From: Candidatus Hydrogenedentales bacterium
GTDB taxonomy: Bacteria; Hydrogenedentota; Hydrogenedentia; Hydrogenedentales; SLHB01
DNA length: 64,000 nucleotides
Reading direction: 5' to 3'
Assembly (NCBI GenBank): GCA_050950105.1
Contig: JBMNGZ010000005.1
Location: 684,168-748,167 of the forward strand
The position numbers and the translations under genes were made by a program. Below are positions 3,569-50,841 of this stretch, piece after piece. Within the stretch, counting starts at the first letter, position 1. The number at the start of each line of letters is the position of its first letter. The notes below the pieces were generated by a model that worked only from the letters and a program-made list of their open reading frames with translations, had not been told where the DNA came from and searched no databases.

Positions 3569-3989
3569 CATTCACGTTCTAAGTGCACTGGAAGCGATTT
3601 TTCGTTTCTGCAGGAAGATTTCAGTGGGTGCTTGCTATCCGAGGCATTTTGGGGGCGATTGTTGAGTTCATCGACTATTTCCAGGAGTTTTTCTAATGTA
3701 GGGGTGGCCCACCGAGGCCGCGTATCCGGATCGTCCCTGCGGCTGCGTTAAAGAAGGGAAGACCCCGTGTCTGCCCATCCGGATAGCCCCAGCACATCTG
3801 GCGATCCCCTGGCGTTCGCGCTCCGGTTGTAGGGGCAGACCCCTGTGTCTGCCCATCCGGATAGCCCCAGTGGCTGCCTTTAAGAAGGGCAGACACAGGG
3901 GTCTGCCCTTACGCGCGGCGTAACTCCCGAACAAGACTCATCTACAGAAATGGGCCCAACCCAAAAACCGTGCACTTTAGTATTAGAAT
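3569..3989 (-). mobile_element. Degenerate IS30-family element, ~420 bp, transposase gene deleted. Structure: IRR (CATTCACGTTCTAAGTGCAC), antisense remnant of the last ~40 transposase codons (frameshifted), three GTAG-initiated REP-like palindromes, ~60 bp of 5' UTR, and IRL (rc CATTCTAATACTAAAGTGCACGG).
   Basis: Imperfect terminal inverted repeats, 16/21 match. Minus-strand translation gives TLEKLLEIVDELNNRPQN..., which matches the IS30 transposase C-terminal LNNRPRK motif region. The ends are shared with locus 2 at 43343 and 43679. Confidence 0.55.
3700..3912. repeat. Cluster of REP-like GC-rich palindromic units, consensus GTAGGGGCAGACCCC(C)GTGTCTGCCCATCCGGATAGCCCCAG plus inverted variants
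   Basis: A direct ~37-bp repeat occurs twice (3756-3792 and 3833-3869), with an inverted copy at 3873-3910. Each unit has an 8-bp stem GGGCAGAC/GTCTGCCC. The same units recur at 43.8-45.0 kb. Confidence 0.75.
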
Positions 3990-4085
3990 GCGCGGCTTTT
4001 GTCGGTGGAAGAAATCTTACGTCGAGACTGCTACAATGCCCTCGATGACATCTCGGAAAAATCCACCATCGGGGAGGACGGATAA

Positions 4086-10231: not shown

Positions 10232-10367
10232 GGATTGGTTTCCTCCGAGGAGCGCAGACTGTTCCGGGAGCCTCAACGGCCGCGTGGCGTGGTCCCGGAT
10301 GCGGTAAAAAGGCTTGCGGGAGCCCGCGCCGAGCGGGCTCCCGCATCAACGACGCCGGATTCGGGCA

Positions 10368-41560: not shown

Positions 41561-41819
41561 GCGCGCCCTCCGGGTTCTTTTCTCGTAACTATAATACTTT
41601 TTATTACCAAACGCAACGGCGGCTCCGACTATTCCAGGAAAGGCCCGAAATCTGGCGCCCGCAATCGCCATTGAAGAGCTGCTCGTAAATTTGCGTTCAC
41701 CGCACTTTTTGCTGTTTAATCAAATCGATCACAAGCCCACTAAGTTGAAGAAAGCCAAAGTGCGCCGGGAAAAGCCGAAAAATCGGGTTGCTGGCGCACG
41801 AACGCGGGGAGGACGCACC

Positions 41820-42705
41820 ATGACTACGACTCGAATGCTTTCCGTTGCCTTACTGGGAGCTGTCTTGTGCTTTTCGATCCTGGCTGCAGAGTCAGAGCCG
41901 GCCGTAGAACATGTGGTCGTCATTGGCGTGGACGGCATGACGGCCAAATCGCTCGAGGCTGCCGAGACGCCCAACATGCACGCGCTGATGGCAACGGGCT
42001 CATACACGCGTGCGGCGCACGCGGTCAAACCGACCGTGAGCGGCCCGAACTGGGGTTCCATGCTCATGGGGAGCAAACCCGAAACCCACGGCGTGGTGAA
42101 TAACAACTGGACGCTCGACACGGAGAATCCGTTTCCAACCGTCTTTACGGCCTTGCGCGCGGCCGAGCCGGAGGCCACCGTGGTCGCGGCCTACGAATGG
42201 GGCTCTTTTGGCCGCTTGTTCGTCGATGAAGACGTGACCCCAGCGTATCGGCGTGGATAAGGAAGCCATTGAAAACGATACCTCAGAAAACGCGGCTTCC
42301 CGCTACATCGCCACGCAGGTGGCCGAGTGCATCAAAGAGAAAAAACCTCGGCTGACCTTTATCCATCTCGACCTGGTCGATCACGCGGGCCATTCCCATG
42401 TCTACGATTCGGAAAAATATAACGCGACGGTTGGCGAAGCGGACAAGCTCGTCGGCCTCATTGTGAAAGGCATCGACGACGCCGGCATCCGAAAAAACAC
42501 CGCCATCTTCGTCGTCTCCGATCACGGCGGCATCGACAAAGGCCACGGCGGCGATACGCCCGAAGAAACCATCGTGCCGTGGATCGTGTCGGGGCGCGGG
42601 CATAGCCCAGGGCGCCGCCATCCCCGACGGCATCAGCGTCGCCCCAGACCGGGCCCACCATCGCGGCCCTCCTGGGCGCCGAATTGCCCGCGCGCTGGAC
42701 CATGA
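41820..42705 (+). CDS. Secreted type I phosphodiesterase / nucleotide pyrophosphatase (AlkP-core superfamily). Frame break near 42250.
   Basis: Signal peptide present. VVIGVDGMTAKSLE...TPNMHALMATGSYT ... (second frame) IHLDLVDHAGHSHVYDSEKYNATVGEADKLVG...VVSDHGG matches the PF01663 pattern. Confidence 0.6.
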
Positions 42706-42757
42706 AGCCCGTGACCCAGATTTTGAAAAAGTAAAAATCTCCCGACACCACCCGCAC

Positions 42758-42960
42758 GACATCGCCCCGGGGACTGCGACATAACGGCACTCCCCGGGGT
42801 ATTACGACAGGACATCGCTCCCGGGGACTGCGGCATAGCGGCACTCCTCGGGGCATTACGACATGACATCGCCCCCGGGGACTGCGGTATAACGACACTC
42901 CTCGGGGCATTACGACCCGACATTGCCCCCGGGATGGCTCCGCACGGAGCCTCCCGGGCC
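42758..42960. repeat. 54-bp tandem hairpin minisatellite, ~3.7 copies. Unit GACATCGCCCCGGGGACTGCGACATAACGGCACTCCCCGGGGTATTACGA.
   Basis: Copies at 42758-42808, 42809-42862 and 42863-42916, plus a partial copy. Each unit carries an inverted repeat CCCCGGGGACTGCG...GCACTCCCCGGGG. No unique spacers. Confidence 0.8.
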
Positions 42961-43195: not shown

Positions 43196-43274
43196 TGGTC
43201 GGGGCGGCGGGATTCGAACCCGCGACCTCCTGCTCCCAAAGCAGGCACGCTAAACCGGGCTGCGCTACGCCCCG
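43196..43274 (-). tRNA. tRNA-Pro (anticodon UGG)
   Basis: Reverse complement CGGGGCGTAGCGCAGCCCGGTTTAGCGTGCCTGCTTTGGGAGCAGGAGGTCGCGGGTTCGAATCCCGCCGCCCCGACCA. 7-bp acceptor stem, anticodon stem CCTGC/GCAGG, loop TTTGGGA with TGG at positions 34-36, T-loop GGTTCGAATCC, encoded CCA. Confidence 0.85.
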
Positions 43275-43342: not shown

Positions 43343-43678
43343 CATTCTAATACTGAGTGCACGGTTCCTGGGTTTAGCCCTTTCCCGTCGGAGCCGTCCG
43401 TCGCTCACCGTGAGCGGCGGCGGACGATGACAGAGGGAAGGACGGCCTTTTTCCTGTTGGTGAGTCTTGAGCGAGGAGGTGGAAAAGAAAAAGACATCGG
43501 GACCCATTCGGTATTCTTGGAGATAGCAACCAACCAAGAGCGAAAGGAATCCCGATGTCCTACACCCATCTTACCCCAATGGAGCGCGCGAAGATCGAGT
43601 TTTTTTTCGCACAGGGATGGAGCTACACTGCGATTGCCTGCCAATTGGGCCGGCATCGCATGACCATTAGCCGCGGTA
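43343..43678 (+). mobile_element. IS30-family IS, 5' portion only: IRL CATTCTAATACTGAGTGCACGG, ~190-bp leader, first 39 transposase codons
   Basis: The IRL matches the rc of the locus-1 right end (21/23). The leader is ~75% similar to locus-1 internal sequence. It is truncated by insertion of the next element at 43679. Confidence 0.55.
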
Positions 43679-43691
43679 CATTCACGTTTTA
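43555..43691 (+). pseudogene. IS30-family transposase N-terminal HTH fragment (truncated after the TISR motif)
   Basis: MSYTHLTPMERAKIEFFFAQGWSYTAIACQLGRHRMTISR|GTFTF*. Matches the IS30-family N-terminal consensus MxYxHLTxxER...LGR..STISRE. Diverges exactly where the second element's IRR begins. Confidence 0.65.
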
Positions 43692-45040
43692 AGTGCGCGC
43701 AAGGCGATTTTCCGTTTTTGCAGGAAGATTTCATTGGCTGTTCGATATCCGAGGCATTTTGGGGGCCGGTTGTTTAGTCCATAGACTATCTCCTGAAGTT
43801 TCTCTAATGTAGGGGCAACCTCCTGGGTCGCCCATCCGGATTGTATTGGCAACCCCCACGCGCTGCAGTAACCTGGATGCACCAGGGCAACCCCAACGCG
43901 GCAGCGTTCCGGAATGTAGGGGCAGACCCCCGTGTCTGCCCATCCGGATCGCCCCTGCGGCTGCGTTAAAGAAGGGCAGGCACAGGGGCCTGCGCCTACG
44001 CGCTGCGCAAAGCAGTCCCCGCGCGGCCGGCCATCCGGATCGCTCACGCACTTCGACGGGACGCTGTGAGCTGGAAGTCACACCCCCCAAAATCCAAGCT
44101 GCAAAACTCCACCTCCGAATCGGTTGACGCCGATTCTCCTCTGCCCGCGGAGGATGGGTAGCCTGGGAGCGCCGACGTCCTCGTCGGCACACGGTTCAGC
44201 CCCGCCCGCGTGGGACAGGTGCGCCGCATCTCAATCTCCAGTTCGGGTTCTTATGTCCCCCGCTGATGGAGCAAAGTATGCCTCGCTGGCCAGCACCGGT
44301 TCCGGGTCTTCTGTCCCCCGCGGGCGGGGGTGGACACGCGCCCCGCGTGGCCGGGGGTGGATTGTGCGGGCAGACACGGGGGTCTGTCCCTACGCGCTGC
44401 GTAAAGCAGTCCCCCGCGGTTGCCGTCCGGATTATTTGGGCAACCCCCACGCGCTGCACAACCTGGGTATGTCGCGGCAACCACAACGCGGCAGCGTTCC
44501 GGAATGTAGGGGCAGACCCCCGTGTCTGCCCATCCGGATCGCCCCTGCGGCTGCGTTTAAGAAGGGCAGGCACAGGGGCCTGCCCTATGCGCTGCGCAAA
44601 GCAGTCCCCGCGCGGCCGGCCATCCGGATCGCTCACGCACTTCGACGGGACGCTGCGAGCTGGAAGTCACACCCCAAAATCCAAGCTGCAAAACTCCACC
44701 TCCGAATCGGTTGACGCCGATTCTCCTCTGCCCGCGGAGGATGGGTAGCCTGGGAGCGCCGACGTCCTCGTGCGGCACACGGTTCAGCCCCGCCCGCGTG
44801 GGACAAGTGCGCCGCATCTCAATCTCCAGTTCGGGTTCTTATGTCCCCCGCCTGATGGAGCAAAGTATGCCTCGCTAGCCACCACCGGTTCCGGGTCTTG
44901 TGTCCCCCGCGGGCGGGGGTGGACACGCGTCCCCGCGTGGCCGGGGGTGGATTGTGCGGACAGACACGGGAGTCTGCGCCTACGCGCTGCGCAAAGCAGC
45001 CCTCGCGGTTGCCGTCCGGATTACTTGGGCAAGCCCAACG
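43679..45040 (-). mobile_element. IS30-derived non-autonomous element inserted into the IS30 copy above. Structure: IRR CATTCACGTTTTAAGTGCGC, antisense remnant of the last ~43 transposase codons (…LEKLQEIVYGLNNRPPKCLGYRTANEIFLQKRKIALRALKT*), and a ~1.2-kb array of REP-like palindromes. Right boundary degenerate.
   Basis: The 130-bp IRR plus C-terminal-remnant 'leader' (43679-43812) is ~85% identical to 3569-3705. Its junction with the REP array is identical in both loci (…TCTAATGTAGGGG). LNNRPPKCLGY matches IS30 LNNRPRKTLGF. Confidence 0.55.
43849..45029. repeat. Two tandem copies of a 590-bp unit (43849-44438 and 44439-45029, ~95% identical). Each unit is built from GTAG-initiated REP-like palindromes and CATCCGGAT motifs.
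   Basis: Direct read-through alignment; period 590 bp. Sub-elements include GTAGGGGCAGACCCCCGTGTCTGCCCATCCGGATCGCCCCTG, GAAGGGCAGGCACAGGGGCCTGCGCCTACGCGCTGCG and GCGGGCAGACACGGGGGTCTGTCCCTACGCGCTGCG. A third unit starts and is truncated (GGGCAAGCCCAACG). Confidence 0.8.
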
Positions 45041-45853: not shown

Positions 45854-47961
45854 TTGACCGCCAGGACGTGCACGAATCCAAACGAGGCGTTCGAGCCCGG
45901 AACGTCGTCGCTGGAGCAAACGGTGGCCGCGTTGCCCGGAATTGGCGACAAACGCGCTGAACTGCTCCGTAATCTCGACATCGTCACAATCCGCGATCTG
46001 CTGTTTTATTTACCCCGGACGTATGAAGATCGCCGCCGGGCTTGCCCGATTGCGCGCCTGAAGGAAGGCGACACCGCGACCATCCGGGCCGTGGTGGTGC
46101 GCTCGGCCACCCGGCGCCTGCGCCGCAGGCTCGCCGCCACCGAAGCCCTGCTGCGCGACGACTCGGGCGAAATCAAGGCCATCTGGTTTGGATTGGGGTT
46201 TCTCTCGCGCACGTTGACCTCCGGCAGGGAAGGGTTTTTCACGGGGACGGCCGGGAAATGGAACGGTCTGAGCCTGCGGAATCCCGACTACGAATTGTTG
46301 TCACATGACGACGAAGATCGGCTCCACACCGGCCGTATCGTGCCCGTCTACCGCCTCACCGAAAAGGTCTCCCAGCGGATGTTCCGCCGCTGGGTCCGCA
46401 TCGCTCTCGACGAAGCCCGGGATCTCGTCGAGGACCGGTTGCCTTCGGATATCGCCCGGCGCCAGGCCCATCGTGACGTGCGCCGGGCCATCGAGGCCGT
46501 CCATTTTCCCGGCAGCCTGGAAGAGGCCCGCAAAGCGCGCGACCGGTTCGCTTACGAAGAACTCCTCGGCATTCAACTCGGCATCCTTCAGGGCCGGGCG
46601 CGTCGTGCCCATGAGGAGGATGGCTACTGCCACGTTATCGACGGGCCGCGCCTGAACGCCCTGCGGCAATCGCTCCCGTTTGCGCTGACACGCGCCCAGA
46701 CGCGCGCCGTGGACGACATCCTGCGGGACATGGCGTCCGTTCGTCCGATGGTCCGGCTCCTTCAGGGGGACGTGGGTTGTGGAAAGACGGTCGTAGCCCT
46801 GCATGCGCTCGCGGCCGCCGCCGACGGAGGCTACCAGGCCGCGCTGATGGCCCCCACCGAGATCCTGGCCGAGCAGCACGCGCTGAACCTGCGTGAAACG
46901 CTCGAGCCGCTGGGCATGACGGTCGAGGTCCTGACCGGCTCGACGGGCGCCGCCCGCGCCGTCCGCCAACTCGCGGCTGCCGGCAGCGTCGACGTTCTCG
47001 TGGGCACCCAGGCGCTGATCCAGGAAAAGACCGGCTTCCGCAACCTGGGACTGGTTATCATCGACGAACAGCACCGCTTTCGGCGTCGTCCAGCGCGACG
47101 CCCTCGTGCAGAAGGGCGCTGCGCCCCGACATTCTCCACATGACCGCCACGCCCATCCCCCGCACCCTGGCCATCACGGTCTATGGCGGCATGGACATCA
47201 GCGTCATCGACGAACTGCCGCCGGGACGCCAGCCCGTCAAGACGCGCCGCGTCACCCCGGCCAAAGTCGAACGACTCTGTACGCCTACATCAGCCGAACA
47301 GGCCCGGAAAGGGTTCCAGACCTATATCGTGTGCCCGCTGGTCGAGGAATCCGACAAGCGCGCCCTCACCTCCGTGGTCCACCATTTCGAGGAGCTGTCC
47401 GCCGGACCCTTCTCGCGAACTTCGCACGGGGCTCCTCCACGGGCGTCAAGGCCTTCGCGGAGAAGGACGCGGTCATGCGCCGTTTCAAGCGAGGGCGAAC
47501 TCGACGTCCTCTTCACCACCACCGTCATCGAGGTCGGCATCGACTGTCCCTAACGCCACCACCATCGTGATTGAAGACGCGCCCCAGTTCGGGCTCACCC
47601 AGCTCCACCAGCTTCGGGGCCGGGTCGGGCGGGGCGCCGAGCCGTCCCACTGCTTTCTGCTGGGCAAGCACACGCCACGCCCGACGGCAAGAAGCGCGTC
47701 GAGGTCATGTGCGCCACCGGCAGCGGCTTCGACATCGCCGAGGCCGACCTCGAACTCCGCGGGCCCGGCGAATTCCGCGGCGTGCGCCAGTCCGGCCTGA
47801 GCGACCTGCGCATGTCGCCGACCTGCTCCGCGACGTGCGCCTGCTCGAGCAGGCCCGCCGCGAAGCCGAGGCCATCCTGCAGCACGATCCCGGCCTTGCC
47901 GCGCCCGAATATCCAGGCCCTGGCCCGGCTCGCCCAACGCTACGACGGAATGGCCCTCTGA
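45854..47961 (+). pseudogene. recG: ATP-dependent DNA helicase RecG. Full-length homology but at least 6-7 frame disruptions (~47083, ~47410-47470, ~47552, ~47690, ~47810, ~47900).
   Basis: Wedge domain present. Helicase motifs LLQGDVGCGKTVVA, IIDEQHRF|, [31 protein letters not shown]|[28 protein letters not shown] and [19 protein letters not shown] are spread over at least 6 ORFs in three frames. The 47083 shift sits in a T-run (cgctttcgg). Confidence 0.8.
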
Positions 47962-48771: not shown

Positions 48772-48788
48772 CCGTCTCATCCCCCAAC

Positions 48789-48825
48789 AAAAAAGCCCCC
48801 TGCGGGCAGGGGGCTTTTGTTTTTG
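48789..48825. terminator. Bidirectional rho-independent terminator: AAAAAAGCCCCCTGC-GG-GCAGGGGGCTTTTGTTTTT
   Basis: Perfect 9-bp GC-rich stem with 2-nt loop, flanked by an A-run and a T-run. It lies between the convergent membrane gene (+) and the sORF/PEP-CTERM genes (-). An exact copy sits at 50609-50645. Confidence 0.75.
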
Positions 48826-48845
48826 CCGGCGACGGGCGGCGGCGG

Positions 48846-48977
48846 ACTAGCGGGACATCCAGAGCATATTGGCAATCAGCAGTTGTTCGAGGCCCACGAA
48901 AAGCTCGGACTGGCTATCCCCATTGCGGTTTTCCGCACGCTTGAGGCCGGCAGCGCCATTTGTGACGCTGCCGGCCA
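48846..48977 (-). CDS. Conserved small ORF (43 aa), 41 nt downstream of the PEP-CTERM gene: MAGSVTNGAAGLKRAENRNGDSQSELFVGLEQLLIANMLWMSR
   Basis: The C-terminal 30 codons plus the following terminator are conserved (~85% nt identity) with a second copy at 50665-50785. 3 of 8 codon differences are synonymous. Weak RBS (aagg). No family recognised. Confidence 0.3.
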
Positions 48978-49017
48978 TAAAGCCTTGCCAATACCTAAGT
49001 TGCGACCGCTGTCCGAA

Positions 49018-49725
49018 TCAGCTCCGGCTGCGTTTACGCGCGGCTTTGAACGCCAACGCGGCAACACCAAGCCCCAGGAGAGTCATCGACGCGGGTTCAG
49101 GAACCACTGCCGATTCGATGGTGAGGGAGGCGTTGTCCAGCGGACCGTAATACCCGCTGAAGTAGGTCCATGACGGCGAAGAGTACCAGGGATTGCCGCA
49201 CCAGGTCGGAGTCGGTACGCCGCTGTAGCTCAGCTCGAAGGTGGCGTAGAAGGGGTCCCCATTCTCTTCAAACAAGGCGGTGACTTGAGCTGCGAGATCC
49301 GCATGCCCGGCGATTTCGTTTCCATTGGCCCAATCGGGATCGGGCATGTAATACTCGCTGTAGTCCGCTGAGAAGTTGAAATCGACGATCGTTCCATAAT
49401 AGGCGTAACGAGACTCCGGATCGCTCGACGAATACCAGGGATCATCGGGCATGTTGGACAAATAGACCCAGCCCGAATCGAACCACCACTGAATGTCCCA
49501 CTGGGTATAGGCTCCCGTCCAGTTGTTGGCGAACACGAATCCAAACTGGTTGTCCCACTGAGTTCCGATTTCCCTGGTGTCAGGCAGGCCGGAGGGGCTG
49601 TTTGGGCTGGTCGACCAGGTCTGAGGCTCGGTGATGATGTTGTCATAGGTGCCGAAGATAGGCGCGGCGTGCGCCACGCCCAGGGTGATCAGACAGACAG
49701 CCAATGCCATACAGATGTTTTTCAT
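49018..49725 (-). CDS. PEP-CTERM sorting-domain protein (exosortase substrate), secreted
   Basis: Signal peptide MKNICMALAVCLITLGVAHA. W/Y/G/D-rich repeats. C-terminal VPEPASMTLLGLGVAALAFKAARKRSRS is the canonical PEP-CTERM motif (TM helix plus Arg cluster). Confidence 0.85.
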   Translation of the reverse strand: MKNICMALAVCLITLGVAHAAPIFGTYDNIITEPQTWSTSPNSPSGLPDTREIGTQWDNQFGFVFANNWTGAYTQWDIQWWFDSGWVYLSNMPDDPWYSSSDPESRYAYYGTIVDFNFSADYSEYYMPDPDWANGNEIAGHADLAAQVTALFEENGDPFYATFELSYSGVPTPTWCGNPWYSSPSWTYFSGYYGPLDNASLTIESAVVPEPASMTLLGLGVAALAFKAARKRSRS

Positions 49726-50282
49726 GCGAACTACTCCTCGTTACTCTGGCTACGCGAGGGGAATAACGTATGCCAGTAATGCATATCTCGGGCATTTCAG
49801 CGTGTCGTGGTCCCCCTACAACTTCGAATTACGCACGCCGACTTTCTGTCATGAAGATGCTGCAATATTCATGCCGTTTTTTGAGAAATTTCATAAGTGG
49901 CGACAATCCAGTCTTTTATGTTAACCATGCCACAGTGGCTGAATTAGCCATCTGGTCGTCTGTTAAGCAAACGTGAACACTCTATGGCCGATATAAAATT
50001 GCATTCTTTCGAGATAAACTTGGATATAGAAGGTCGATATCCGTATTTTGCGTAAAAATCGTGGTTCCGGGCCTTTCAGGCGTCTCCCTACGTTGCCTGT
50101 CAGGGTTTGGGGGGGACCTGCAAGCCAAAAAGAGGCGTACTGCGAATTATCGTTGAATTTCGCCCCGGCAGAGCCTGCCGCCAGCACATGAACCGAAAAT
50201 CTCGTTTGGAGGCACAGGCGGCAGCGCCTGTGCCGACGCTGCCGCCCATAAGTATAAAATCGGGTCAACAGTGTCGATATGT

Positions 50283-50600
50283 CCCGTAATCAGCCCGGGT
50301 TGCGCTTTCGTACGGCTTTGAACGCCAACGCGGCAACACCAAGCCCCGGGAGGGTCATCGACGCGGGTTTAAGAGCCACCGCCGATTCGATGGTGAGGGA
50401 GGCGTTGTCCAGCGGACCGTAATACCCGCTGAAGTAGGTCCATGACGGCGGAGAGTACCCGGGATTGCCGCAGCAGGTCGGAGTTGGTACGCCGCTGTAG
50501 CTCAGCTCGAAGGTGGCGTAGAAGGGGTCCCCATTTCTTCAAAGAGGGGAGTGACTTGAGCTGCGAGTTGCGCGTGCCCGGCGATTTTGCTTGCATTCTT
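50283..50600 (-). pseudogene. 3' fragment (~105 codons) of a PEP-CTERM paralog, 5'-truncated, with indel and degraded motif (…ALKPASMTLPGLGVAALAFKAVRKRNPG*)
   Basis: ~88% nt identity to 49021-49330. Has a 1-nt deletion (cccattctcttc > cccatttcttc). PEP changed to LKP. Homology ends at ~50600, where the terminator copy is fused. Confidence 0.6.
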
Positions 50601-50608
50601 CCGTTTAT

Positions 50609-50645
50609 CAAAAAAGCCCCCTGCGGGCAGGGGGCTTTTGTTTTT
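50609..50645. terminator. Second copy of the AAAAAAGCCCCCTGC-GG-GCAGGGGGCTTTTGTTTTT terminator
   Basis: Identical hairpin to the one at 48795-48814. Precedes the duplicated sORF tail in the same relative arrangement. Confidence 0.7.
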
Positions 50646-50664
50646 GCCGGCGACGGGCGGCGGA

Positions 50665-50841
50665 CTAGCGGGACATCCAGAGCATGTTGGCAATCAGCAG
50701 TTGTTCGAGGCTCATTAAAAGTTCGGACTGGCTGTCCCCATGGTGGTTTTCAGCGCGGGTTGACGCCGACAGCGGCACCGCACCTCGCGCCTGTTTCGCT
50801 GCGGTACACTCGTTCCAGAGCATCGTTTCTTCCCCTTTCAT
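50665..50841 (-). CDS. Second copy of the conserved small ORF (…RAENHHGDSQSELLMSLEQLLIANMLWMSR*). N-terminus uncertain.
   Basis: Shares the C-terminal ~38 codons and stop with the sORF at 48846. Lies downstream of the CDP-sugar epimerase gene. Only the M58 start (MKGEETMLWNEC...) was considered. Confidence 0.3.
   Translation of the reverse strand: MKGEETMLWNECTAAKQARGAVPLSASTRAENHHGDSQSELLMSLEQLLIANMLWMSR

Follow-up and report, generated by a model that had tools for sequence, protein, structure and literature searches.

Probable GTAG-type REP clusters of the RAYT group 4 kind, partly within IS30 remnants, in a Candidatus Hydrogenedentales genome

REP hairpins, a familiar kind of selfish DNA in bacteria, are small palindromes. 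The described REPIN populations belong to RAYT groups 2 and 3 of Gammaproteobacteria and comprise hundreds of copies. REPINs were reportedly described by Bertels and Rainey in 2011. RAYT group 4, or TnpA_REP subclass 2.4, is scattered over at least 17 classes (PMC5581495, PMC6006769), with about 14 copies per replicon for group 4 (PMC5581495). The REPs of subclass 2.4 are long, are of the GT[AG]G type and have three G-C pairs at the stem base (PMC6006769). REPs in frame within subclass 2.4 tnpA genes have also been described (Quentin et al. 2018, PMC6006769). GTAG REPs have already been reported in Planctomycetes, Verrucomicrobia, Chloroflexi and Cyanobacteria, their HH dimers were described by Di Nocera et al. 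in 2013, and REP clusters include dimers reiterated together with flanking DNA (PMC3733652). An association of insertion sequences with REPs is known from ISPpu9 in REPs (PMC12288879), and the Tn3-derived TIMEs are an example of transposon-derived MITEs (PMC4133298).

The window analysed here is a stretch of 64,000 nucleotides from a Candidatus Hydrogenedentales MAG. It contains 11 GTAG-footed, GC-rich hairpin units, all of which are located at 3698-3912 (in locus A, 3569-3990) and 43809-44983 (in locus B), and none was found elsewhere in the window. We read the clusters as mosaics of GTAG-type repetitive extragenic palindromes, partly within dead IS30 elements and linked to RAYT group 4, with a probability of roughly 0.7. 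The kind of REP hairpin is known, and the loci are one more example rather than a new kind of element. The features are collected in Table 1.

Table 1. Features of loci A and B, with positions in the window.
Position	Strand	Feature	Detail
3569..3990	-	Locus A: complete 422-bp IS30-derived shell, MITE-like	IRR ... REP units ... IRL
3569..3704	-	IS30 right inverted repeat and frameshifted remnant of last ~42 tnp codons	translation ...PTLEKLLEIVDELNNRPQNASDS...
3698..3723	+	Degenerate GTAG unit adjoining tnp remnant	GTAGGGGTGGCCCACCGAGGCCGCGT
3756..3784	+	Truncated unit GGGAAGACCCCGTGTCTGCCC, then ATCCGGAT	sequence
3829..3912	.	Perfect 84-nt inverted dimer, REPIN-like	GTAG-hairpin, 32-nt spacer, hairpin-CTTAC
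3913..3990	-	IS30 left-end remnant with IRL (3969-3990)	reverse complement CATTCTAATACTAAAGTGCACGG, as at 43343
43343..43675	+	IS30 left end: IRL (43343-43364), leader, first 40 tnp codons	ORF 43555-43692
43679..43815	-	Inverted IS30 right end: IRR and last 42 tnp codons	translation SGWATQEVAPTLEKLQEIVYGLNNRPPKCLGYRTANEIFLQKRKIALRALKT*
43809..43833	+	GTAG unit, one stem mismatch, then CATCCGGAT	fold -5.1 kcal/mol
43834..43915	+	82-nt spacer of 107/108-nt head-to-tail unit	
43916..43999	.	Inverted dimer 1: GTAG-hairpin, 32-nt spacer, hairpin-CTAC	fold -25.9 kcal/mol, z = -4.1
43995..44367	+	Large inter-REP module, copy 1	hairpins GAATCGG/CCGATTC, GCCGACG/CGTCGGC; CCCCCGC..GCGGGGG palindromes
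44368..44393	-	GTAG unit, one mismatch	fold -5.7 kcal/mol, z = -3.1
44394..44505	+	Spacer module, second copy of 43834-43915 type	
44506..44589	.	Inverted dimer 2	fold -24 kcal/mol, z = -4.1
44584..44957	+	Large inter-REP module, copy 2	96% identity to copy 1
44958..44983	-	Degenerate GTAG unit	fold -3.1 kcal/mol, z = -1.0
43835..45040	+	~590-bp segment, twice in tandem	dimer + module + single unit + spacer
3829+, 3912-, 43916+, 44506+, 44589-		Perfect units	n = 5
43809+, 43999-, 44393-		Units with one stem mismatch	n = 3
3698+, 3756+, 44983-		Degenerate or truncated units	n = 3

The units follow the pattern GTAGGGGCAGAC-N6-GTCTGCCC, usually with ATCCGGAT next. With at most one mismatch, GTAGGGGCAGAC matched six times in the window, always in the two loci, against an expectation of 0.23 from shuffles, and all seven copies of CATCCGGAT in the window are inside them. 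The 26-nt core unit has GTAG as its unpaired foot, a G+C stem of 8 bp and a 6-nt loop C-N-N-N-G-T. Its stem base is formed by three G-C pairs (GTAG-GGG CAGAC ... GTCTG CCC), as is typical of subclass 2.4 / group 4 REPs (PMC6006769). The foot, GTAG or GTAA, stands unpaired 5' of the stem in every non-truncated unit. In the hairpin scan, perfect stems of 8 bp enclosing 6-nt loops appeared at 43920-43941 and 44510-44531 and a 9-bp stem at 44563-44586, together with stems of 8 bp (3833-3854) and 10 bp (3885-3910) in locus A. The units are G+C-rich stem-loops in the size range of REP palindromes (20-40 nt), with perfect stems of 8-10 bp and a 6-nt loop. A single hairpin folded as ssDNA at -8.6 kcal/mol (z = -4.5), and the degenerate unit at 3698-3723 folded weakly (-4.4 kcal/mol, z = -0.1). 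The truncated unit keeps its relation to the dimer beside it, since 3756-3792 and 3833-3870 are 95% identical in self-BLAST. Units of + and - orientation coexist in one array. The preliminary description of this DNA had claimed at least 10 GTAG-initiated hairpin repeats with perfect stems of 8-9 bp, in both orientations within one array, and these points were borne out. Its label BIME-like is also fair, considering the GTAG foot, the 26-nt GC-rich stem-loop, the inverted dimers and the mosaic clusters.

The basic arrangement is an inverted dimer of 83-84 nt with a conserved 32-nt spacer, ATCCGGAT.GCCCC..GGCTGC.TT.AAGAA. It is REPIN-like and forms part of a BIME-like mosaic, along with conserved spacers and further conserved palindromic modules. 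Three such HH dimers are present in the window, and others are found in the flanking contig sequence and at several distinct metagenome loci. As in REPINs and in the HH dimers of GTAG repeats (PMC3733652), two inverted REPs with their GTAG feet outside are separated by a short conserved spacer, and the whole dimer can fold as one long hairpin. The dimer at 3829-3912 reached -33.5 kcal/mol as ssDNA (z = -8.7). In contrast to the described REPIN populations, the dimer goes with the group 4 type. The BIMEs of Escherichia coli share with these clusters the alternating orientation of palindromic units, the few conserved non-REP motifs between them and the enlargement by tandem reiteration. On the other hand, the unit sequences differ, the accessory modules are much larger here (230-370 nt), and the clusters lie partly inside IS remnants.

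The preliminary description regarded the hairpins as unusual for this lineage. This view does not hold, because species-representative genomes of many bacterial phyla carry this 26-mer, at no fewer than 120 loci and often as inverted doublets, and GTAG REPs had been reported widely before. Of 238 matches to GTAGGGGC-N4-N6-N4-GCCC, 223, distributed among 10 stem types, had full complementarity at the four free stem positions, and the loop positions C1, G5 and T6 were kept. In 5 of the at least 120 loci listed, a Y1-transposase gene (PF01797) contains the hairpin in frame. The best NCBIfam match of these five genes is the REP-associated tyrosine transposase (E = 1e-16 to 1e-17). Their motifs include NH[IF]H and YIxNNP, joined in one gene by WQ (the subclass 2.4 signature). 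The peptide VGADxxVCP, which is the hairpin translated, was present in 102 of the best 120 RAYT matches. Judged by these sequence features, this type of hairpin is the 'canonical long REP' of RAYT group 4 / TnpA_REP subclass 2.4. The likeness to that system extends to the GT[AG]G foot directly beneath a long hairpin that starts with three G-C pairs, to the low-to-moderate copy number with a patchy spread over several phyla, and to the in-frame occurrence of the 26-mer within genes, between the HUH and Tyr motifs. The differences are that no cognate RAYT gene was seen in the sequence of the host organism examined, and that the local family has tails and spacers of its own (ATCCGGAT..., TTCTTAAAG...) and large accessory modules. 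In tblastn with three RAYT queries, no RAYT gene, of which NH[IFV]H, WQ and YIxNNP are the marks, was detected in the window, L121, L140 or L125-L139; about 76 kb of the organism and related metagenome loci totalling about 85 kb were covered. The association of hairpin and RAYT is seen in other genomes and, by analogy, would apply to the host genome. Searching the full text of the literature for GTAGGGGC yielded no relevant paper.

Locus A starts with CATTC (3569) and ends with GAATG (3990). Its terminal inverted repeats are imperfect (CATTCTAATACTGAGTGCACGG versus CATTCACGTTCTAAGTGCACTG) and of the IS30 kind. The segment 3568-3704 is 84% identical to 43678-43815 in locus B, and this homologue matches annotated IS30 family transposases in tblastn: the fragment at 43679-43815 showed 45-51% identity at E = 6e-3 to 1e-1 in 482 records. 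The N-terminal fragment of locus B matched IS30 family transposases with 57.5% identity over 40 aa (tblastn, E = 4e-6), and the matches of the first 40 codons ranged from E = 4e-6 to 4e-7. Its ORF, 43555-43692, is identical to P0122, a protein with PF13936 (HTH_38) from a Candidatus Hydrogenedentales MAG. NCBIfam gave nothing diagnostic for the short tnp fragments. Therefore, the IS30 identity was shown by tblastn against annotated plasmids. A full-length IS30 query detected no DDE core anywhere in the window, where only the first 40 and the last ~42 codons are left, and no DDE transposase with an N-terminal HTH is encoded there. In locus B, the outer end of the inverted right-end piece adjoins codon 41 of the N-terminal fragment. 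Both arrays had been placed inside IS30 shells. This is correct for locus A, which has both inverted repeats, but locus B has IS30 pieces on its left side only. On its right side no IS30 end or IRL was detectable, and the left-end search there performed no better than shuffles.

The junction between the REP-derived codons and the transposase remnant (...APT/LEKLQEIV..., more fully ...GQTQGSAPT/LEKLQEIV... in frame) is the same in loci A and B, in L125, L126, L128, L134 and L136 and in P0001 and P0123, and the flanks differ. The recurrence of one junction at no fewer than eight loci in related genomes points to the spread of a REP-carrying shell, derived from IS30, as a non-autonomous element. 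Identity among the IS30 ends of the various shells is only 79-84%, so that any transposition of the shells would be old. No target-site duplication was recognisable at the shells. An intact IS30 partner or parent was found neither in the window nor by a word-indexed protein search, which returned only ORFs of shells and fragments. In a bolder and rather unlikely reading, the chimera of REP clusters captured between IS30 ends would be a functional non-autonomous transposon. The recurrent in-frame junction could instead mark, by analogy, a preferred site of REP insertion in transposase genes. The in-frame REP insertions inside RAYT genes are a parallel to such a preferred site.

These data also bear on an alternative in which the clusters are purely an IS30-derived MITE family, the hairpins being the interior of a decayed IS30 derivative that owes all its spread in this lineage to recombination and the IS30 transposase, RAYTs being inactive in this genome. 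Like IS-derived MITEs, the shells have IS-family terminal inverted repeats, lack a functional transposase and occur in several copies with different flanks; the 422-bp locus A with both IRs and the junction at eight or more differently flanked loci would suit a MITE, whereas the identity of only 79-84% between copies and the failure to find a target-site duplication or an autonomous partner would not. The junction of IS30 remnant and REP is common to two of the three clusters on the contig and to most related metagenome loci, the two window loci have a gene context atypical for REPs, and no RAYT gene was seen in the sequence examined. However, the cluster near ppk and the loci L127, L132, L137 and L138 show no IS30 pieces, and in other genomes this type of hairpin goes with RAYT genes. 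In addition, loci with a 16-21% difference in their IS30 ends have almost the same hairpins, an argument for some separate process that maintains the hairpins. A pure MITE family is considered unlikely. Whereas in known IS-REP cases the IS enters the REP, here the REP cluster lies within IS30 ends and replaces the transposase core. No description of a REP cluster inside IS ends was found in a limited literature search.

The array of locus B contains a tandem duplication, in which 43835-44451 and 44426-45040 are 94% identical over 620 nt. An assembly artefact, affecting the duplication or the whole array, is extremely improbable. The window does have indel-type frameshifts relative to JGI contigs, which suggests an error-prone long-read assembly. 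Nevertheless, both 590-bp copies are collinear in L145, an independent JGI assembly of the same organism with about 17 differences in 2.5 kb, and the duplication is thus real. Locus A was likewise found in the independent assemblies L121, L122 and L123 and is identical in three assemblies other than that of the window. The array had been called recombinogenic, and this is supported by the duplication and by related metagenomes, which pair the same shell and right flank with different left flanks. The 107/108-nt head-to-tail unit occurs in three tandem copies in the metagenome contig L132, and the first ~230 nt of the large module are conserved in eight copies from the window, L121 and metagenome loci.

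This conservation of a ~230-nt module, including an unpaired C/A-rich stretch, and the many stable local hairpins would be in line with one or more structured non-coding RNAs, as proposed in the preliminary description. In Rfam 15 only a tRNA-Pro at 43199-43274 reached the gathering threshold in the window, and the sub-threshold matches were eukaryotic miRNA models that fit any long hairpin. The RNAalifold covariation term of the large module was +0.63, with a double change in only 3 of 48 pairs over the eight copies. Promoter-like sites were not found in the array, terminator-like sites were no commoner than in shuffles, and the units occur in both orientations. The proposal is not sustained, and an RNA product is very unlikely. 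The high-GC ORFs over the array are even less likely to be real repeat-containing proteins. ORFs of 121-196 aa do exist, one of them (43682-44047, minus strand) joins REP-derived codons in frame to the IS30 C-terminus, and similar ORFs have been called in metagenomes (P0001, P0123). However, the array-spanning ORFs have no family matches at E <= 1, NCBIfam included, they overlap on both strands in several frames, and their sole database relatives are other shell ORFs. Furthermore, the tnp remnants are frameshifted in locus A and P0001. The antisense ORFs had been dismissed as repeat artefacts, and as repeat translations without family matches they appear to be so, but two and not three share the start (GTG)MSDPDGRPRGDCFAQR, at 44047 and 44636 on the minus strand. 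The array DNA is most likely non-coding, and selfish or structural. Other repeat-bearing systems were considered and dropped. For CRISPR, the spacing is not regular with unique spacers. In the vicinity of the loci, no cas genes were seen in the ORFs and gene calls, nor an integrase gene as for an integron attC or an RT gene as for a retron.

For the preferred reading, mosaics of GTAG-type REPs, the following mechanism is proposed. A TnpA_REP subclass 2.4 tyrosine (HUH) transposase would recognise the GTAG foot and hairpin on ssDNA, cut and rejoin. Dimers and single units, with two or three further conserved palindromic modules, are linked up into BIME-like mosaics that grow by tandem segmental duplication, here of ~590 bp twice. 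In the Hydrogenedentales MAG and its relatives, a REP cluster has taken the place of the catalytic core in an IS30-family transposase gene. The shell so formed consists of IRL, a short tnp N-terminus, the REP mosaic, the last ~42 tnp codons and IRR. Given the common junction and the distinct flanks, it was probably moved in trans by an intact IS30 elsewhere. Local effects may include cruciform or hairpin formation, recombination and rearrangement. Loci A and B, both between divergent genes, probably have no dedicated cellular function.

The GTAG REP / RAYT group 4 hairpin type is now extended to the candidate phylum Hydrogenedentota, which, their species lists aside, does not appear in two surveys (PMC3733652, PMC6006769). 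The loci also present a concrete nesting of two unrelated transposition systems, with HUH-type REPs lying in an IS30 of the DDE type. If the shells are mobile, RAYTs are not necessarily the sole means of REP dispersal, and if the chimera is indeed a transposon, a DDE transposase would be a second, RAYT-independent route for the spread of HUH-type REPs.

The units had been described from only two places. This is true of the window, but a third cluster follows ppk directly on the same contig (L121:14583-15653), 1.1-2.2 kb to the left of the first window position, and its visible side shows no IS30 piece. Across ~76 kb of the organism's sequence there are at least 14 units in three clusters, and a related 519-kb contig has only two strict matches. 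All three clusters are extragenic, between called genes with Pfam hits. The siting of the window loci between divergent genes is atypical for REPs. Since such clusters split short-read assemblies and yield spurious high-GC ORFs, they should be masked when MAGs of this kind are annotated. Short-read contigs of the same organism end at locus A (L123 and L149), at window position 43400 (L146) and inside the third cluster (L121), as is expected of contigs at multi-copy repeats.

Hairpins that are GC-rich and start with GTAG form a family at two sites of the window, 3698-3912 (in locus A) and 43806-45040 (in locus B). The 12-mer GTAGGGGCAGAC with at most one mismatch gave six matches, all at these two sites, against 0.23 expected. 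The hairpin scan returned perfect stems, 8-10 bp long, that close 6-nt loops, and imperfect copies were listed by a second, looser scan. Of the eleven units found in the window, five are perfect, three have a single stem mismatch and three are degenerate or truncated. Both orientations are represented, and CATCCGGAT follows the plus-oriented units (seven copies, all inside the two loci). As single-stranded DNA, the 26-mer has a predicted fold of -8.6 kcal/mol (z = -4.5) and the best dimer one of -33.5 kcal/mol (z = -8.7). The preliminary description proposed a family like repetitive extragenic palindromes (REPs) and their BIME mosaics. The feature is real and its class essentially correct. The further suggestion of a structured RNA was not upheld; an RNA gene is unlikely. 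A coding array is also unlikely, in agreement with the view of its ORFs as repeat artefacts; two of them, not three, start with MSDPDGRPRGDCFAQR.

The recurrent unit is an inverted dimer of 83-84 nt rather than a single hairpin. It consists of a GTAG-hairpin, a conserved 32-nt spacer (ATCCGGAT.GCCCC..GGCTGC.TT.AAGAA) and a hairpin-CTAC. The dimer was also found in several metagenome loci and in a third cluster, which lies on the same contig 1.1-2.2 kb beyond the window, directly after ppk. The earlier restriction of the hairpins to two places is therefore correct within the window, but not for the contig. The 107/108-nt head-to-tail unit occurs in three tandem copies in L132, a metagenome contig. 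The stretches 43835-44451 and 44426-45040 are 94% identical, and this duplication of ~590 bp (dimer, module, single unit and spacer) recurs collinearly in a JGI contig from a separate assembly of this organism. The duplication noticed earlier is thus real, and the array has grown via tandem duplication. An assembly artefact was excluded by independent assemblies. Just left of locus B, a separate 54-nt tandem repeat (42755-42933; 3.3 copies, 88% identity) lies between a sulfatase-family gene and tRNA-Pro.

Features of the two hairpin loci in the window
Feature	Position	Description
Locus A, complete shell	3569-3990	422 bp; IRR, transposase C-terminal remnant, REP units, left-end remnant, IRL
Locus B	from 43343	IRL, leader, transposase codons 1-40; inverted IRR, outer end abutting codon 41; transposase C-terminal remnant; 1.2-kb REP mosaic; then ordinary DNA without IS30 end
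Transposase N-terminal fragment	43555-43674	40 codons
Inverted dimer	3829-3912	
Inverted dimer	43916-43999	
Inverted dimer	44506-44589	
Head-to-tail unit	43809 to 43916	107/108 nt
Large module	43995-44367	230-370 nt, own small palindromes
Large module	44584-44957	230-370 nt, own small palindromes
Single inverted unit	44393	
Single inverted unit	44983	

The same ~137 nt (84% identical) precedes both window loci on the plus strand. On the minus strand it reads as the final ~42 transposase codons and then an inverted repeat. This C-terminal fragment matched annotated IS30 family transposases in tblastn. The match of the N-terminal fragment to the IS30 family was stronger (57.5% identity, E = 4e-6). 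A Candidatus Hydrogenedentales MAG has an NCBI protein, carrying an HTH_38 domain, to which the ORF of this fragment is identical, and this match gives the host lineage. A full-length IS30 query detected no DDE core in the window or the other loci analysed. Both sites had been placed inside IS30 shells. Locus A is indeed a complete shell; at locus B, however, IS30 pieces are confined to the left side. The layout of locus B fits an inversion from an intramolecular IS30 event, and it equally fits insertion of one element in another with later loss. The REP clusters are nested within IS30 remnants and share a junction.

A scan of metagenome contigs for the hairpin plus ATCCGGAT yielded 15 stretches. 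In most of them, the IS30-remnant junction ...ctggagtttttctaat|GTAGGGG (as protein, ...APT|LEKLQEIV...) stands ahead of the hairpin, and the called ORFs P0001 and P0123 carry the same junction. P0123 was found on 12 contigs, and its left flanks vary between samples. Judged by distinct flanks, the shell is present at at least 8 loci. Short-read contigs of the same organism terminate exactly at loci A and B and in the third cluster, and such contig ends are the usual signature of a multi-copy repeat. The IS30 ends of the shells are mutually only 79-84% identical, while the hairpins are almost all identical, including partner arms outside the search pattern. Therefore, the shells are old and of single origin, and another process appears to keep the hairpins uniform. 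The serious rival is that the hairpins are mere cargo of an IS30-derived MITE family in a genome without an active REP-associated tyrosine transposase (RAYT). This uniformity speaks against it, as do clusters without any IS30 piece (the ppk cluster and the metagenome stretches L127, L132, L137 and L138). In L151-L160, the P0123 shell and its right flank (a PBP-family gene) have at least three different left neighbours across samples (Nramp, BcrAD_BadFG, CinA), which may mean either that the shell was a site of rearrangement or that the repeat led to chimeric assembly.

The hairpin type is not confined to this organism. Scanning one genome per species with GTAGGGGCAGRC-N6-GYCTGCCC gave at least 120 loci. 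Hosts among the matches listed include Chloroflexota, Planctomycetota, Desulfobacterota, Bacteroidota, Bacillota, Cyanobacteria, Acidobacteriota, Nitrospirota, Campylobacterota and others, often with inverted doublets whose partner hairpins are related in sequence. Of 238 matches to GTAGGGGC-N4-N6-N4-GCCC, 223 showed full complementarity at all four free stem positions, with ten stem types; conserved in the loop are C as the first base and G-T at positions 5-6. Among the 120 matches listed, five hairpins fall within a Y1/HUH transposase gene, in its reading frame and just past the HUH motif. These proteins match PF01797, with REP-associated tyrosine transposase as top NCBIfam match. Their motifs are NH[IF]H and YIxNNP, plus WQ in one of them; this is the motif set of TnpA_REP subclass 2.4, which corresponds to RAYT group 4. 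For subclass 2.4, Quentin et al. describe long GT[AG]G REPs whose stem base consists of three G-C pairs, a patchy spread over many phyla and in-frame REP insertions within the tnpA gene (PMC6006769). A profile search returned at least 8000 such RAYT proteins. The direct hairpin translation VGADxxVCP is present in 102 of the best 120 of these, a share biased upwards since the query profile held the peptide. Group 4 occurs in 17 classes with ~14 copies of associated 16-mers per replicon (Bertels et al., PMC5581495), which fits the low hairpin density here. GTAG REPs were earlier reported from Planctomycetes, Verrucomicrobia, Chloroflexi and Cyanobacteria (PMC3733652). The hairpin, regarded at first as unusual for this lineage, thus belongs to the group 4 REP type, which is widespread and is present here in a Hydrogenedentales MAG.

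In other phyla, full GTAG hairpins at L051:~710, L077:~110 and L117:~108 are followed by tandem 3' half-hairpins with a short spacer (for example aaatagacctatgtgtctgccc, repeated), as if copying had repeatedly aborted at the hairpin. In the subclass 2.4 RAYT genes L023:1907-2650, L085:270-830 and L117:389-988, the stretch between the HUH and Tyr motifs holds one to several inserts that derive from the hairpin and stay in frame (VGADLRVCP..., GEHTGSPV...); the insert region of L023 spans ~80 aa.

At several loci, the sequence has the structure of a family of GTAG REPs, dimers and mosaics. The hairpins may have been made, and may be homogenised, by a group 4 RAYT of this genome or of an ancestor. 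Like E. coli TnpA_REP, for which this has been shown, it would recognise the foot plus hairpin in single-stranded DNA, and an IS30 transposase would have moved the shells in trans. Loci A and B both lie between divergent genes, and their DNA probably has no dedicated function. The family itself is not new in kind. Only for the recurrent packing of REP clusters inside IS30 ends did a limited literature search find no description.

Some other features were observed. The recG region (46000-47500, GC 0.68) shows ~227 differences (~15%) from the JGI contig L145, whereas elsewhere L145 and the window agree at 99.9% or more; the region may be a tract of strain-level recombination or may have been mis-polished. 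Here recG is split by a frameshift (45854-47143 / 47140-...), while L145 encodes it intact (697 aa). Genes at 41691-42705 and 1043-2107 are also frameshifted and are intact in JGI contigs (303-aa sulfatase-family and 354-aa DUF1573). At least 10 single-base gaps separate the window from short-read contigs; together with the frameshifts of these two genes, they suggest indel errors of long-read assembly rather than pseudogenes. In the region 48788-50774, a gene for a PEP-CTERM-type protein lies on the minus strand at 49018-49725, and its 3' part is partially repeated at 50288-50597 (91-93% identity). Two terminator-like hairpins with the same sequence, AAAAAAGCCCCCTGCGGGCAGGGGGCTTTTGTTTTT, both bidirectional, stand at 48788 and 50609 and are unrelated to the GTAG family. 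A lone 31-nt near-perfect palindrome without GTAG foot, GCGGGAGCCCGCGCCGAGCGGGCTCCCGC (10315-10345), lies between convergent or adjacent ORFs and is probably a terminator.
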